Notes under the pieces: model-generated
Told to the model about the DNA's origin: nothing
Seen by the model: only the letters and a program-made list of their open reading frames with translations
Databases searched by the model: none
Shown: positions 15,161-47,720 of the stretch, one piece after another
Layout: every line of letters begins with the position of its first letter
Numbering within the stretch: position 1 is the first letter of the stretch
Translations under genes and position numbers: made by a program
From: Candidatus Poribacteria bacterium
GTDB lineage: Bacteria; Poribacteria; WGA-4E; WGA-3G
Assembly: GCA_965198235.1 (NCBI GenBank)
Contig: OZ240248.1
Span: forward strand, 1,440,001-1,504,000
Direction: 5' to 3'
Length of the DNA stretch: 64,000 nucleotides

Positions 15161-15500
15161 CCTGCAACAACGGCGCAGGCGGGTCTACGGGGAGGCAGAT
15201 GAATGCCCAAACCCAACTGACCGAACCGCAAGGAAAAATTAAAAACCTGCAACAACGACGCAGGCGGGTCTACGGGGAGGCAGATGAATGCCCAAACCCA
15301 ACTGACCGAACCGCAAGGAAAAATTAAAAACCTGCAACAGCGGCGCAGGTGGGTCTACGGGGAGGCAGATGAATGCCCAAACCCAACTGACCGAACCGCA
15401 AGGAAAAATTAAAAACCTGCAACAGCGGCGCAGGCGAATATACGTCGATTAACATTATTCGCTAATTCACCTAACCGAACCGCAAGGTATAATTAAAAAA
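15161..15500 (+). repeat. tandem array of 4 x 85-bp units of the CCGAACCGCAAGG element
   Basis: Units start at 15161, 15246, 15331 and 15416; the first three are nearly identical and the fourth has the same ends but a different middle. Confidence 0.95.
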
Positions 15501-29411: not shown

Positions 29412-31691
29412 ATGCCACGACTCACTGAACAGGAACAACAAGAAATCATCCGCTTTATTGAGGCAGACAAACCGCTGCCCGACAAATACCGCTTCCTGCT
29501 GTTTGAAGACAAACGCGAGGTAGAACTCGTCTGGAACGGCAAGACCAACGAGGTCTGCAACATCGTCCTCCCCTTTCAGACAATTGAGCACGTAGACGAA
29601 CCCCGCTCCGAAAAACTTTCCGATGACAATCTGCAACTCGATTTGTTTGACACACGTGGCCGCCAACGCAAAGGTTGGACGAACAAGTTAATCTGGGGCG
29701 ACAACAAACTGGTTTTGTCATCACTCAAGAACGGACCGCTGCGCGAGGAGATTGAAGCACAAGGCGGGCTCAAATTCATCTATATCGATCCGCCTTTTGA
29801 CGTGGGCGCGGATTTTTCTATGGATATCGAAATTGGTGGTGAGACGCTCACCAAAAATCCAAACATCCTTGAAGAAATCGCCTATCGCGATACTTGGGGT
29901 AAGGGTACGGATTCGTTCCTTACAATGATTCACGAAAGGTTGATTCTGATGCGAGATTTACTGACAGAGGATGGCAGTATCTATGTGCATTGTGATTGGC
30001 GGGTGAATTCATCACTTCGGTTTGTATTGAATGAAGTCTTTCATGATTCAAACTTCGTCAATGAAATTATCTGGAGACGTAAGCAAGCGCAGGCATGGTC
30101 TTCTGACCAGTTTGGTATAACGAATGATACTTTATTATTATATGGGAAATCGAGCGACCGTGTTTTCAACCCAACTTATTCAAAGGATGACGATAACACA
30201 GAAAAATACATTAAAGAACGATTCAAATTTGATGATGGAGACGGTCGGAAATATATGAAGTCTCCTTTAGTGAACCCTTTAGTGCGTCCCAATCTGCAAT
30301 ACGAGTTTCATGGTGTAAAGCCTCCCAAGACTGGTTGGTTGTATAAAAAAGAGCGCATGGAGGAAATGTATCAGAACAACGAGTTAGTAATGCCGGATAG
30401 TCCAAACGCTCGAATATACCGAAAAATTTATCTTGATACCTATCCGGGGCAGATGGTTCAGAATGTGTGGGTTGATATCCCTATAGTTAATCCAATGGCC
30501 GATGAACGAGTCGATTATCCCACCCAAAAGCCGGAAGCCCTACTCGAACGCATCATTAGGGCCTCCTCCAATGAAGGCGACCTCATCGCCGACTTCTTCT
30601 GCGGTTCTGGCACCACTGCCGCCGTTGCTGAAAAACTGGGGCGCAAGTGGATCGCTACAGACCTTGGCAAATTCGCCATCCACACCACGCGCAAACGAAT
30701 GATCGGAGTCCAGCGTCAACTAAAATCAGATAGCACAGACTACCGTGCCTTTGAGATTATTAATCTCGGTAAATATGAACGTCAACACTACATCGGTGTT
30801 AATCCAAATCTCCGCGAGGAGGAACAGCAGAAACAATTGATAGAAAGGGAAAAGGCGTTCATTGACCTCATCCTATGTGCTTATGCTGCTGAAAAGACTG
30901 AGGGGTTTACCAGTTTTCAGGGGAAGAAAGCCGGTAGACTGATAGCAATCGGTCCCGTCAATTTACCGGTAACACGCCTACTCATAGAGGAGATCATTCT
31001 TGAATGCCGCAAACATCAAGTTACTCGGGTAGATATTCTCGGCTTTGAGTTTGAGATGGGTCTATTTCCTAACGTGTTAGATGAGGCGAAAAGCAGGGAC
31101 ATCAACATCGCACCGAAATACATCCCCGCTGAAGTATTTGACAAGCGTGCAGTGGAGCAGGGGCAGGTGGTATTTCACGATGTAGCGTTCATTGAAGTCA
31201 AACCTCACATCAAGGCAGGTGGGAAAGGTAAGCCCGCGACAGTAGCGTTAGAATTAACCGATTTTTCCGTCTTTTACTCACAAGATTCCATCTCCAACGC
31301 TGAGCAGACACTCAAGAACAGGAGCAGTCGCATCGTGTTGGAAAAAGGGCAAGTCGTAAAGGTGAGCAAAGATGCAGATGGGATTGTCAGTCGAGACATA
31401 TTGACTAAAGAATGGACAGACTGGATCGACTATTGATCAGTTGATTTTGACTTTGAGAGCAAACACGAGATTATCCGCATGCAAGATTCAAAAATGGGTG
31501 AGTGGGAAGAACAGTGGACAGGCGACTACGTCTTTGAAAATGAGTGGCAAAGTTTCCGCACTAAGAAAGACCGCTCATTGGAATTAACCAGCGTCGCCCA
31601 CGAATGCACACCCGGCCGCCGCAAACTTGCTGTCAAGGTCGTTGACATCTTTGGCAATGACACAATGACGATTGTAGAGGTATCGGTGTGA
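29412..31691 (+). pseudogene. mod: type III R-M Mod (N6-adenine MTase) interrupted by an in-frame TGA at 31434-31436
   Basis: IYIDPPF, YPTQKPE, DFFCGSGTT; reading continues in frame DWIDY*SVDFDFES...KVVDIFGNDT to 31691. Confidence 0.85.
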
Positions 31692-32437: not shown

Positions 32438-34303
32438 TCACGTAAACAGTGGAAATTCGAGTTGTTGTGGTTCTGTCTGTGTAGGCTTCGGTTGCCGGAT
32501 CTGTTCTGTTTCAGTTTTAGGCACGGTGTATGTTTCCGGTTTTTGCATCGGTTTCGGATAGGAGCCTGTATCTTTTCTATATCCATACCTATATCCATCG
32601 CGATGTCTGAAGCGTCTTAATTGGCTGAGGTTACCTGATTCACGTTTGTCTTTTGTATCTTTATAAAAATTATTTACACGGCATTCTTGCGGTTTCCCTG
32701 GAGGGGTCTTCTCAAAGCAGTTAATTACACCTTCTACGCGCCCGCTCTTCTTTGTTAGATAGACATGGTCGCCTCTGTGAAAACCGTTAATGTGAGATGC
32801 TTTGAAAATTTTCTGACGGAACCCTGGAAATTTTCCGCCTTTGGTACACCCAAAGCGATATTTGAGGTTATTCCGGCTTCCGTAGCCAAGGGCATGTATC
32901 ACAAATACAGGGACTTTCGCACAGGCTTCTTGTGGTGTGTTTTCAACGGCGGCTGCATCATAATAATGTGTCTTCGGCAGCCCAGCACTGTTACGGTTGT
33001 AGGCTGTCCGTCCTCCAGAACCACAAAATACAGGGAGTTGTGTCGCCTGTAGGGTCTCTACAAGTTTCCACCGAATCGTATTCACTGCCGCCGCGTCTGA
33101 TAACGAGAATCCGCGCTTTGATTTTGATAATACCGTCTTTTTTATTTTCTTTGCAATCTCTGGATGCCGCTTTTCTAATTCTTTACCCCAAAGTCCACCC
33201 TTTTTCTGGTTACACGTGTGACATGCCATCGTGAGGTTGTCGAGCCTGTCTGAACCGCCAAGGGCTTGTGGATAAATGTGTTCTATCTCTAAACGCTGCC
33301 CACCTTTGCCACAATAAGCACATTTTCGCTTCGTTAATTCCAATAAATACTCTCTCTTTTCACGTCTATATAAGGGCCCCCGTTGATATTCAATACCGTG
33401 AATATCGGGGTTCTCTAACAGTTGCATATCAAACTTGACTTCCTCAATAGCTAGACGTTTTATCGAATAGAGATTTGTCAATCTGCGTGTCCATGTTTCT
33501 AAGTTGAATACACGAGACATAAGACTCGGTGCAATCCAGCCGTTATCAGCACGTTTTTTGTGTCCAATACGCTCACGTTTCCAACGATACTTCGTGGGTG
33601 GCGTATTCTTCAACTTTGCTTTCAGGGCACTTCGTAAGAACCCTAACGTTTTCGACATCAGGGCATCGCGTTCCGCTTTTTTATCACGCATCATGATATG
33701 GTGAATCAGCTCGTCTCTTGTAAGACGTGCGACCTCTGCGTTCGTCATCTCAGGCATGAATTCTTTACGGGTACGGGATTTGATACGAGTATAACGATAC
33801 CGCTTGTCTTTCAATTGCGCAGACGACACTCTCACAAACTTGTTCTTCGTTTTTGACGAGTCTTTCGATAGATCGGACTCGTCTTCAGCACGTCTGTACC
33901 TCCATCCTTCAGTTTCCGTGAGAACAGGCACTTTACGTCCACGATTCGCCCAGCGCGCTGGCCGGTGTCGTAAATTTCGGGTTCTCCGCCCACGACGAAA
34001 GCCCGCTCTCTCTTTCAAAGCCTTCTTTATCTGGATCCCCCGATGATGAAGTTCTGCCTTCATGACAATGTTGTTCTCATTGTCTAAAATCGCAATCCCT
34101 GATGTTCGGGAACCTGGGTCCCAATTTAGAGAATAAACACCCGTTACGATCTCGTCCTCTGGTATCACGCGCTTGAGGATAATTGCAAACGGATATTTGC
34201 ACCATACTGCCGCCTCCCCATCACGAAGCAAACGACGGGCAACTGCGGGATGGCAGGGTTCCAAGACTTTCTTTTCAGAATCTATAACCGCAACTTTAAA
34301 CAT
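32438..34303 (-). CDS. iscB: IscB RNA-guided endonuclease (OMEGA), enlarged and CRISPR-associated
   Basis: PLMP-like VLEPCHPAVARRLL...YPFAIIL; RuvC-I WDPGSRTSG; bridge helix RRGRRTRNLRHRPARWANR; GWIAPSL; RuvC-II IEEVKFD...GIEYQRG; HNH CAYC...EIEHIYP...GGSD..DNL..ACHTCN; RuvC-III THYYDA. Confidence 0.95.
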   Translation of the reverse strand: MFKVAVIDSEKKVLEPCHPAVARRLLRDGEAAVWCKYPFAIILKRVIPEDEIVTGVYSLNWDPGSRTSGIAILDNENNIVMKAELHHRGIQIKKALKERAGFRRGRRTRNLRHRPARWANRGRKVPVLTETEGWRYRRAEDESDLSKDSSKTKNKFVRVSSAQLKDKRYRYTRIKSRTRKEFMPEMTNAEVARLTRDELIHHIMMRDKKAERDALMSKTLGFLRSALKAKLKNTPPTKYRWKRERIGHKKRADNGWIAPSLMSRVFNLETWTRRLTNLYSIKRLAIEEVKFDMQLLENPDIHGIEYQRGPLYRREKREYLLELTKRKCAYCGKGGQRLEIEHIYPQALGGSDRLDNLTMACHTCNQKKGGLWGKELEKRHPEIAKKIKKTVLSKSKRGFSLSDAAAVNTIRWKLVETLQATQLPVFCGSGGRTAYNRNSAGLPKTHYYDAAAVENTPQEACAKVPVFVIHALGYGSRNNLKYRFGCTKGGKFPGFRQKIFKASHINGFHRGDHVYLTKKSGRVEGVINCFEKTPPGKPQECRVNNFYKDTKDKRESGNLSQLRRFRHRDGYRYGYRKDTGSYPKPMQKPETYTVPKTETEQIRQPKPTQTEPQQLEFPLFT

Positions 34304-34324: not shown

Positions 34325-34542
34325 TAATTCTTCTACTAAAAGCAGAAGATATTGACCTTTAGAGGTAAAGTGAGCCTCGTCAATGTTATCCGTGCTTTAT
34401 TCAGGGTTGACAGCGTATTGTAAAGCCATTTACATTGCACCCGACAGAGCTTTAGGCTGGCGTCATGCACCCAAAGGTGTCTATATCACCGGTAACGTAG
34501 TTGAAAACTTAGACTAGATACCACTTGAGCATGGAGTTGCAA
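34325..34542 (-). ncRNA. omegaRNA (HEARO-like) scaffold beginning with an anti-repeat (tracrRNA-like)
   Basis: Minus strand reads, in order: CTAGTCTAAG, AACTACGTT, ATAGACACC..TGGGTGC, GCCAGCC.AAAGCTCTG, AACATTGACGAGG, CACTTTACC, then hairpin TCTTCTGCT-TTT-AGTAGAAGA. These match my recollection of conserved omegaRNA blocks, directly upstream of iscB. Ends are approximate. Confidence 0.85.
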
Positions 34543-34636
34543 ATTTGCCGTCAATCTCCCGGTGAATTCACACTATCGGAGGTCGACAGCAAAATTCTTA
34601 AGAGGATTGCCGGTGACACCTACATTCTTGCATAGC

Positions 34637-35210
34637 GTTGCAACGCAAACATGCCCAAGCGATAACTGCATCTCGATGTGATAGTCGCGCCCGACATCAG
34701 AGTTGCAACGCAAACATGCCCAAGCGATAACTCACAACGATGTAGATCGCTTTCTTCGGCTGATAGGGTTCCAACGCAAACATGCCCAAGCGATAACTGA
34801 CGATATGATTAGACAAACTGGCAATGTAATCACGTTCCAACGCAAACATGCCCAAGCGATAACTCTTTCTCTGGATCGTATTGGGAATCGAGGTACGTAG
34901 GTTGCAGTTCAAACAGGCCCATAGGTGTCAATTTTAGAAAATATATCCGTCTTTTATGGGACTTGCGTGCTATATCTTGTCTGAATCACGGATGACACGG
35001 ATTTCGCAGATTTCGCAGATTTTGGAGTTCTCTGTCCGTGCGAGGTCTTTAGTAAGTGTTGGGTTTCACTGAGTATGTCTGTGATGGCAAGTATATGAAC
35101 GGTGGCTTAGTTTTCTATGAGTTGAAAGCATTTGTGGTTATCCGTTCAACCCAACCTACGATACTAAATTGACACCTATGGTTGCAACGCAAACATGCCC
35201 AAGCGATAAC
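34637..35210 (-). CRISPR. CRISPR array, 30-nt repeat GTTATCGCTTGGGCATGTTTGCGTTG(C/G)AAC (minus strand), 4 unique spacers, interrupted by a MITE
   Basis: Full repeats at 34637-34666, 34702-34731, 34768-34797, 34834-34863 and 35181-35210; partial degenerate repeat at 34901-34920 (16/20); spacers of 35, 36, 36 and 37 nt, mutually unrelated. Confidence 0.95.
34920..35180. mobile_element. composite MITE with CATAGGTGTCAATTT(T)AG TIRs inside the CRISPR array
   Basis: cataggtgtcaattttag at 34920 and ctaaattgacacctatg ending at 35180; same TIR end at 22268-22285; interior holds two other repeat families. Confidence 0.78.
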
Positions 35211-35294
35211 GAGCGTAGGGGGCAAGGCTGGTTCTATAATGGACACTACACATCACCGTATTTGTGAAAGCAGTTGAGACCTCCCAAATCCAAG

Positions 35295-47447: not shown

Positions 47448-47720
47448 GTAAGCCCAAGCAACGCGCCGGGCTGGATATACGGGAAGGAACGTTCTCGTAA
47501 AATCCATCCTCACCGAACCGCAAGGTAAGTTAGAAGAATGTAAGCCCAAGCAACGCGCCGGGCTGGATGTCCGGGAAGGGGCGTTCTCGTAAAACCCGTC
47601 CTCACCGAACCGCAAGGTAAAATAAAAAAATGTAAGCCCAAGCAACGCGCCGGGCTGGATGTCCGGGAAGGAACGTTCTCGTAAAACCCGTCCTCACCGA
47701 ACCGCAAGGTAAATTTAAAA
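47448..47720 (+). repeat. 3 x 92-bp tandem CCGAACCGCAAGG-family units
   Basis: gtaagcccaagcaacgcgccgggc starts at 47448, 47540 and 47632; each unit ends ccgaaccgcaagg + A-rich tail. Confidence 0.95.

Follow-up and report, generated by a model that had tools for sequence, protein, structure and literature searches.

A CRISPR-associated IscB locus from a sponge-symbiont Candidatus Poribacteria genome, with phage-matching spacers and a flank resembling type III-A leaders

Introduction

Systems in which an IscB-family nuclease is associated with a CRISPR array were reportedly first described by Altae-Tran et al. in 2021. The locus analyzed here, which lies in a 64,000-nt stretch of DNA (hereafter the window) from the metagenome-assembled genome (MAG) of a sponge-symbiont Candidatus Poribacteria bacterium, has the same layout as these CRISPR-associated IscB systems, namely an IscB-family nuclease, an array and an anti-repeat in an upstream non-coding RNA, in a locus without adaptation genes. 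According to PMC10734277, IscB-CRISPR associations arose several times independently, and the term 'CasIscB' is found in PMC13180657. DelIscB, as described in PMC12660989, has the same repeat/anti-repeat layout upstream of its open reading frame (ORF), the question of processing of the RNA into two parts being left open there; it is a protein of 457 aa with NAC as its target-adjacent motif (TAM), whereas the protein considered here has 621 aa, including a REC-like insertion of ~130 aa, and a predicted TAM of about NGG.

Three further groups of systems offer points of comparison. Type II-D (Cas9d) systems resemble the locus in combining a compact effector with an array and a trans-activating CRISPR RNA (tracrRNA), and in having a protospacer-adjacent motif (PAM) on the 3' side; two papers present them as lacking Cas1, Cas2 and Cas4 (PMC11706934) or as having adaptation genes in few cases only (PMC9755519). 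Unlike Cas9d, the locus retains a PLMP-type N-terminal domain and a large omega-type scaffold, and its protein fails the Cas9d model while passing the IscB model. Canonical transposon IscB (OgeuIscB; Rfam HEARO) has the same protein core and, over its downstream two thirds, the same RNA scaffold, but the guide in cis and the 5' strand of the outer helix are missing here, and the array would supply that strand in trans; moreover, the locus is fixed, being syntenic in four species, and is directed at phages rather than at the donor site of the element itself. Finally, the type III-A (Csm) systems of Poribacteria, with Cas4, Cas1b and Cas2, have the same repeat length of 30 nt, a similar range of spacer lengths and a common leader block, whereas they differ in most of the repeat sequence, their stretch holding a TATAAT box is missing from the IscB flank, and the IscB array has to be read on the opposite strand for its repeats to pair with the anti-repeat.

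The type of system is therefore one already known, viz., CRISPR-associated IscB, and it is the leader link that appears to be new: on natural phage targets, an NGG-type motif, reversed polarity and leader homology we found nothing in the searchable literature, which does not cover the founding 2021 paper. With moderate confidence, we favor a reading in which this is a working array of a CRISPR-associated IscB that received its spacers from a Cas1b-type Cas1-Cas2 acting in trans at the IscB-proximal end. Poribacteria provide a natural series on how the arrays of IscB and Cas9d systems devoid of adaptation genes are filled, a series that spans array turnover between species, real phage targets with an NGG-type motif and an insertion end bearing a piece of a leader of another CRISPR class. 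As it includes genomes with a III-A-class integrase, genomes without it and one (G087) without any integrase, the question is directly testable. A compact nuclease whose predicted TAM is simple is a further outcome of the analysis. Should the leader link amount to the shared hairpin only, the locus would simply be one more CRISPR-associated IscB.

An IscB-family nuclease next to a CRISPR array

The locus is ordered as array, tracrRNA-like omega RNA with a covarying anti-repeat and the gene for the 621-aa IscB. The array has the near-identical direct repeats and unique spacers of uniform length that mark genuine CRISPR arrays: five 30-nt repeats (34637-34666, 34702-34731, 34768-34797, 34834-34863 and 35181-35210, minus strand) and four spacers (spacer 1, 34667-34701, 35 nt; spacer 2, 34732-34767, 36 nt; spacer 3, 34798-34833, 36 nt; spacer 4, 34864-34900, 37 nt; all minus strand), which agrees with the initial annotation, made from the window alone, where the spacers had been described as unrelated and uniform in length. 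In the minus-strand reading each spacer precedes its own repeat, with repeats 1-4 and spacers 1-3 together occupying 34637-34863. As that annotation had also recorded, repeats 3 and 4 have in common a G>C change (at repeat position 4) that is absent from repeats 1-2 and 5, and the base at 35211, beside the outermost repeat, is G. Beyond the fifth, distal repeat (35181-35210, minus strand) lies a flank that is conserved among species and holds no spacer.

The iscB gene (32438..34303, minus strand; protein P0001) codes for an N-terminal PLMP/RRXRR region, a split RuvC domain, an HNH domain and a REC-like insertion. Searches with Pfam profiles recovered RRXRR (8e-50) and HNH in the 621-aa protein, which passes the NCBIfam model guided_IscB with 334 bits against a cut-off of 175, and fails the models of the Cas9 families (Cas9d, 45 bits against 375; TIGR01865, 30 bits against 100). 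The closest solved structure is TbaIscB, with other IscB chains next. By these profile and structure matches, the protein is a member of the IscB family and not a Cas9 or Cas9d. The catalytic columns of RuvC and HNH are invariant in our alignment (A1), in which the REC-like insertion of ~130 aa (residues 122-255) falls between the motifs FNNR and LTP, as they are named in PMC13180657. An AlphaFold2 model has a mean pLDDT of 66, with values of 35-67 in the insertion, a confidence too low to name its fold. Among the IscB proteins compared, the insertion measures 0 aa in canonical IscB, ~14 aa in phage-borne array-less versions, ~60 aa in one array-bearing clade, ~130 aa here and ~150 aa in G006.

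Two observations set the locus apart from a mobile IS200/IS605-type element, viz., its synteny in four species and the lack of any conserved neighbor gene besides iscB in the 11 loci compared, though no search for the TnpA family was made. Of 13 Poribacteria loci, nine have an array directly upstream of IscB, as against none of 31 loci from other phyla; two more such arrays are in G002 and G155.

A guide RNA predicted to be split between array and scaffold

Between the array and iscB lies a scaffold derived from omega RNA, which we interpret as a putative tracrRNA (34365..34587, minus strand; Rfam HEARO, 68.4 bits, E 1e-12, gathering score 83). It departs from a canonical omega RNA in having neither its own 5' guide nor an intact outer helix, as the outermost helix has no 5' strand pairing in cis; the control, a canonical IscB of G143, gave 134 bits with HEARO and has this helix intact. 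The remaining 3' strand of the outer helix is the predicted anti-repeat (34516..34543, minus strand), which pairs with the minus-strand repeat over 17 + 7 bp (RNAduplex, -30.4 kcal/mol). The anti-repeat begins 93-95 nt past the last repeat in 8/8 loci, with duplex energies of -25 to -38 kcal/mol and compensatory changes, and a comparison of the pairing over 12 loci indicates that the repeats of each clade fit their own anti-repeat. In a fold of one RNA running from spacer 1 through repeat 1 and the linker to the scaffold, repeat 1 pairs with the anti-repeat in both the minimum-free-energy and the centroid structure. Because the repeat pairs with the anti-repeat, including in this joint fold, the omega RNA is, as predicted from its sequence, split into a CRISPR RNA (crRNA) part from the array and a tracrRNA part.

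These elements, i.e., an IscB effector, an array next to it and a non-coding RNA upstream that contains an anti-repeat, are those that define CRISPR-associated IscB. The predicted crRNA:tracrRNA duplex together with a 3' PAM is reminiscent of type II systems, in the sense of a functional likeness and not of membership. We propose that array, scaffold and iscB are all read on the minus strand, that each crRNA consists of a spacer followed by a repeat, and that the crRNA repeat would pair with the scaffold anti-repeat as a crRNA does with its tracrRNA; the repeat nearest the scaffold could pair in cis, yielding a natural single guide. All repeat-spacer-repeat units, the scaffold and iscB are represented without differences among the contigs from an RNA library, which is weak evidence of expression, as DNA carry-over is possible and contigs show neither strand nor ends nor level. 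A contig from another sample carries the phage protospacer of spacer 2, where carry-over of DNA is likewise possible, and the contig of a related strain ends inside repeat 1.

Phage-matching spacers and a candidate NGG-type motif

Two of the four spacers match one and the same gene of a Poribacteria phage, which codes for a major capsid protein. Spacer 2 is identical to it (36/36) in two contigs (G062:C78 and G106:C2) and matches eight further contigs with one to five mismatches among 176 Poribacteria genomes, and spacer 4 matches the same strand of the gene ~1.18 kb away, at best over 35/37 positions, with two to six mismatches in ten contigs. For the targeted ORF the PHROG match is a major head protein (1.6e-13), and its neighbors are genes for a portal protein, a protease and a large terminase (1e-27); these phage genes occur on contigs measuring 80-141 kb, and some genomes have them within chromosomes. 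The host genome has no homologue of the targeted capsid or terminase. No target of spacers 1 and 3 was detected in their own genome or in the 176 Poribacteria genomes, and their 22-nt cores found none in IMG/VR; the whole array had no match among the INPHARED phages. In the JGI metagenomes, the junction pattern had no match, and the 17-nt repeat core had 51 single matches and no array, which we read as chance.

For the analysis of flanks, which like the target search had been suggested in the initial annotation, we used the four orthologous arrays (that in the window and those of G087, G107 and G109), leaving out decayed units with degenerate repeats and counting matches to phage contigs from 80% of the spacer length upward. 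Matches to phage-like contigs were obtained for 11 of the 18 spacers of these arrays, a count partly so by construction as detailed below, in contrast to 1 of the 521 type I-G spacers from five genomes (Fisher p 1.5e-17). With the guide read on the minus strand, the 3' flank of the 11 protospacers has G at +3 in ten (p 5e-6) and a purine at +2 in nine, and their 5' flank shows no motif. This points to a TAM of about NGG on the 3' side, as expected for IscB and Cas9, and a 3'-side NGG-type motif in turn indicates that the minus strand is the guide strand. The IscB protein, with its RuvC and HNH residues intact, would accordingly be able to cut phage DNA bearing such a 3' motif; we infer minus-strand transcription, RNA processing and DNA cleavage alike from sequence features.

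The notion that the array merely represents duplicated transposon ends or adjacent host DNA, with no immune role, might draw on the transposon origin of IscB and on the lack of adaptation genes nearby. It would have been borne out, as pointed out in the initial annotation, by spacers matching only the flanks of iscB insertions or host DNA. The spacers instead have no match beyond 17 nt elsewhere in their own genome, two of them match a phage capsid gene, the protospacers have a consistent 3' flank motif and four species have the locus fixed in a syntenic position, which leaves this notion scarcely credible.

The matches to phages also bear on a base common to the four spacers, all of which start with T on the plus strand, as had been noticed from the sequence and as their coordinates confirm. 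Three explanations had been offered, namely a 31st base of the repeat, a bias in acquisition or chance. The T is part of the protospacer in both matched targets (of spacers 2 and 4), and for this reason it is not a 31st repeat base; a bias is not borne out either, as T is the first spacer base in only 12/26 spacers of G014, 2/7 of G087, 0/5 of G107 and 0/3 of G109. With an expectation of ~0.02 for any base to be shared at one end (by simple arithmetic), the shared terminal T is due to chance.

Three observations on the targets and the motif may be added. In the capsid gene (L129:8475-9836), the sites of spacer 2 and of one G087 spacer lie on opposite strands with 19 nt in common, each with an NGG-type flank. 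Two phage-like contigs, G167:C1 (141 kb) and G049:C178 (96 kb), combine the targeted capsid and terminase genes with one or two array-less IscB genes having the ~14-aa insertion (loci L165-L176). We also considered whether the GTN motif of type I-D, read backwards, might give the NAC of DelIscB, and dropped this idea as the adaptation locus of the genome is of type I-G and the flank here is about NGG.

Array turnover and polarity among orthologous loci

The sister species G087, G107 and G109 carry the same syntenic locus, with 93-95% identity in the DNA of IscB and scaffold and 85-92% in the array-side flanks, and this homology stops exactly at the arrays. Across the four orthologous arrays the spacers are wholly different, barring one decayed distal spacer common to G087 and G109. 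Invariance of the spacers across strains had been named in advance as an argument against active acquisition; in the comparison we made, which is between species, orthologous loci differ completely. Degenerate repeats are IscB-distal in the arrays of G087, G107, G014, G001a, G006 and G089, and a variant is common to the four proximal repeats of G087. Since the decayed repeats lie at the distal end, we infer that this is the trailer end, with spacers entering on the scaffold side, at the 3' end of the array transcript; new spacers in the array studied here would thus be inserted at its IscB-proximal repeat. The phage-derived spacers, the turnover between orthologous loci and the decay confined to one end all support acquisition by an integrase, as had been surmised from the regular spacer lengths.

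Differences of this kind could also result from recombination, with spacer sets being renewed as array blocks are swapped in from other IscB-CRISPR loci, including those of phage- or plasmid-like contigs, the conserved repeats and scaffold providing the homology. The IscB genes on the target-bearing phage-like contigs G167:C1 and G049:C178 are compatible with such exchange, as are the variant of repeats 3-4 missing from repeats 1-2 and 5, which fits a mosaic, and the arrays of G087 and G109, which are unique and have fresh matches in genomes without an intact cas1. Against this, the phage-borne IscB copies examined carry no arrays, no spacer block is common to any two arrays other than the single decayed distal spacer, and the repeats of each clade match their own anti-repeat. 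On balance we regard recombination as an unlikely source of the spacers.

Isolated single repeats of the IscB-array kind (two mismatches), with no IscB nearby and followed by a similar flank, were found at two places, L041 (G016:C78) and L042 (G066:C52).

A proximal flank resembling type III-A leaders

The IscB-proximal flank of the array consists of an inverted-repeat block (34547..34592), which is homologous to III-A leaders and which, in the minus-strand reading, forms the first hairpin of the predicted tracr RNA, and of the rest of the leader-like flank from this block to repeat 1 (34593..34636), which is nearly identical in four same-genus loci. In the III-A locus of G014, Csm1-5, Cas4, Cas2 and Cas1b were typed, the last with 457 bits (cut-off 304); Cas1b typing applies to G014 only, the other III-A-type loci being those with an unfused cas1. 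The III-A arrays of G014, G107 and G109 have 30-nt repeats and spacers of 32-45 nt with a mode of 36-37 nt, a geometry that matches that of the IscB arrays (30-nt repeats and 35-40-nt spacers).

The IscB-proximal flank aligns with the III-A leaders over 46-64 nt, and does so solely when the two are oriented alike with respect to the first repeat. Compared with shuffled sequences, the alignments reach z scores of 10-22 for this genome, G014, G107 and G089, 6-9 for G006 and ~2-4 for G001a. The controls, comprising the I-G leader and trailer, the distal flank of the array and the flanks of another 30-nt array, remain at z ~0-3, with one at 5.1, and the regions upstream of array-less IscB genes stay below 3.4. 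A MAFFT alignment (A2) has at least 24 invariant columns in the block. Relative to the III-A leaders the IscB flank is ~35 nt shorter, and the missing stretch holds their TATAAT box. A 71-nt query spanning the block recovered hits in 27 of the 176 genomes, with seven hits being IscB loci, 13 lying 0.5-1 kb beyond an unfused cas1 and the others unplaced; a 13-mer of the block is unique in the host genome.

The two kinds of arrays thus share a leader element beside the first repeat and not the repeat sequence itself. We conclude from these alignments that a common ancestry links the array, together with part of its leader, to the phylum's arrays with unfused, Cas1b-type cas1-cas2. The IscB-proximal flank would be a shortened homologue of the III-A leader, and because of this homology, and because the arrays in question have unfused cas1-cas2, 30-nt repeats and spacers with a mode of 36-37 nt, the likeliest integrase would be a Cas1b-type Cas1-Cas2 acting in trans.

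Two further III-A-like sites deserve mention in their own right. The III-A leader of G109 has a second stretch resembling the tracr 5' end (L234:9300-9335), which lies ~230 nt before the first repeat and in the opposite orientation to the main block. On a 140-kb contig with phage structural genes (G089:C1), there is a 19-repeat array of the III-A kind with 30-nt repeats (L154:4341-5584) and a copy of the leader block 1.5 kb away.

Possible sources of the spacers

No cas1, cas2 or cas4 occurs in the 64 kb of the window, as the initial annotation had stated and family searches confirm, so that the cas1-cas2 pair typical of genuine arrays is missing from the locus. The Cas1, Cas2 and Cas4 families have one match each in the genome, at C1:2.731-2.734 Mb, 1.26 Mb from the window. 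This locus is of type I-G: it has a Cas4g/Cas1g fusion, which scores 627 bits (cut-off 560), along with Cas6 and a Cas3-type helicase, and its array has 56 repeats of 37 nt. Listing the other arrays and cas1 genes, which had been proposed as a check, yielded this one further array and this one cas1, both of type I-G; a simple array finder returned no array elsewhere in the genome beyond the IscB and I-G arrays.

The resident I-G module, with its Cas4g/Cas1g fusion and Cas2, would seem the obvious donor of spacers in trans, being the sole Cas1-Cas2 in the genome and having spacers whose range (34-49 nt) overlaps the 35-37 nt observed here. Several lines of evidence nevertheless make this improbable. 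The I-G repeat has 37 nt as opposed to 30 nt, and neither the I-G leader nor its trailer is similar to the IscB flank (z ~0). Spacers longer than 40 nt make up 54/521 of those in I-G arrays and none of the 116 in IscB arrays, which have 35-40 nt (p 2e-5). The contrast in hits to phage contigs noted above (1/521 for I-G and 11/18 for the IscB arrays) points the same way; searched against the genome and the compared loci, the 521 I-G spacers gave one 33/38 match, from which no PAM is derivable, and with the I-G array as query over the phylum the matches listed were homologous arrays. Furthermore, all Cas1 genes of G014 are unfused although its IscB array holds 26 spacers, and G087 has no cas1. 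Cas1 itself is found in 132 of the 176 genomes of the phylum, and its co-occurrence with IscB arrays therefore says little.

The situation in G087 might also be taken to mean that spacers enter independently of Cas1-Cas2, for instance from IscB cleavage products with the help of host repair, in what would be a self-sufficient two-part system. Besides the absence of both cas1 and cas2 from G087, this would be in line with iscB being the only gene conserved across the 11 loci, and the 19-nt overlap of spacer 2 with a G087 spacer on the opposite strand could reflect acquisition near a cut site. However, the strictly regular units with cleanly duplicated repeats are the mark of an integrase, the leader is homologous to those of arrays that do have cas1-cas2, and MAGs can miss plasmids bearing cas genes; we consider entry without Cas1-Cas2 highly unlikely.

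There remains the Cas1b-type integrase acting in trans, the source we favor. Borrowing of a Cas1-Cas2 from another system had been suggested at the outset, and the outcome is divided: the homology of the leader to those of III-A arrays speaks for it, while the only Cas1-Cas2 in the genome, that of the I-G module, is not supported as the donor and a Cas1b module is absent. A number of observations count against our preferred reading, and we set them out together. As regards the integrase, the host genome has neither a Cas1b-type gene nor a 30-nt III-A array; G087, assembled as one contig and 95% complete, is without cas1 and cas2 and still has three spacers matching phages at 37/37, 38/38 and 35/36 positions; and in G109 Cas1 is present only as a 129-aa fragment. 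As regards the leader, the IscB and III-A repeats are alike at only ~12-13 of 30 positions, so that recognition by a shared integrase is not assured; counted from the first repeat, the block occupies -90 to -44 here and -132 to -86 in III-A leaders; and, being an inverted repeat and a tracr hairpin, it might have been kept not for integration but for regulation or the binding of IscB. As regards the array, the variant of repeats 3-4 is absent from the newer repeats 1-2, which simple duplication at the leader end leaves unexplained. Spacers from this array and from G014 served to find the phage contigs, making the hits of those spacers so by construction, and the hits free of this circularity number 9 of the 14 spacers of G087, G107 and G109. 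As regards expression, a scan of the minus strand for promoters and terminators found no promoter or useful signal outside a miniature inverted-repeat transposable element (MITE)-like insertion in the array, and the RNA-library contigs can show neither strand nor ends.

Given that the host genome has only the type I-G module, the four spacers would have been inherited in an array that is static or inefficiently fed. We accordingly view the spacers here as probably inherited, and the integrase and any present activity of the array as putative; the arrays in the host genome, G087 and G109 may be inherited and static, or may be renewed by recombination.

One observation on the co-localization of IscB with adaptation genes stands apart. 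In a 5.3-kb contig of G143 (L121; G143:C394), a canonical IscB with a full omega RNA lies directly behind a cobalamin riboswitch (114 bits) and directly before genes for a Cas4-Cas1 fusion and Cas2. We considered this adjacency as a functional link and rejected it, reading it as chance, as the omega RNA is canonical and its cis helix intact.

A tentative evolutionary scenario

A bolder proposal, which we put forward only tentatively and hold to be doubtful as it stands, is that the IscB systems have captured their arrays from the unfused-cas1 (Cas1b-type) class, read them backwards and still have them filled in trans by Cas4-Cas1b-Cas2. Under this proposal, a fragment of a III-A leader would have been fused to an omega RNA truncated at its 5' end and would have become the first hairpin of the tracrRNA. 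A 5' CCN chosen at acquisition, in the style of type I systems, would equal a 3' NGG on the opposite strand used by IscB, and the newest spacer would land in the position of the natural single guide. The REC-like insertion would have grown stepwise within the phylum, from 0 through ~14, ~60 and ~130 to ~150 aa. If true, this would amount to an independent and still legible replay of the origin of Cas9 systems.

Other features of the window

Spacer 4 and the fifth repeat are separated by an insertion. Directly after spacer 4 comes a partial copy of the repeat start (34901-34920, 20 nt, 16/20 positions), which also resembles the palindromic motif preceding other copies of the MITE-like element that follows. 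This element (34921-35180, 260 nt) has terminal inverted repeats, of which there are 29 copies in the genome at up to two mismatches, along with many partial copies of the element, and it is not present in the orthologous arrays of G087, G107 and G109. In front of most of its other copies stands a short palindromic motif similar to the beginning of the CRISPR repeat; given this resemblance, the MITE may have mistaken the CRISPR repeat for its usual target.

Elsewhere in the window, tandem units of ~98 nt occur four times at 15181-15477 and three times at 47448-47702. They match no Rfam family at the gathering score; both runs end just before an ATG of a downstream ORF, and a conserved tail is common to the units. 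On the far side of iscB, ~1 kb beyond it and after a small DUF4325 gene, lies a gene (29412-31436) for a 674-aa N6/N4 DNA methyltransferase that is recognized by PADLOC as a type III methyltransferase (2.8e-97).

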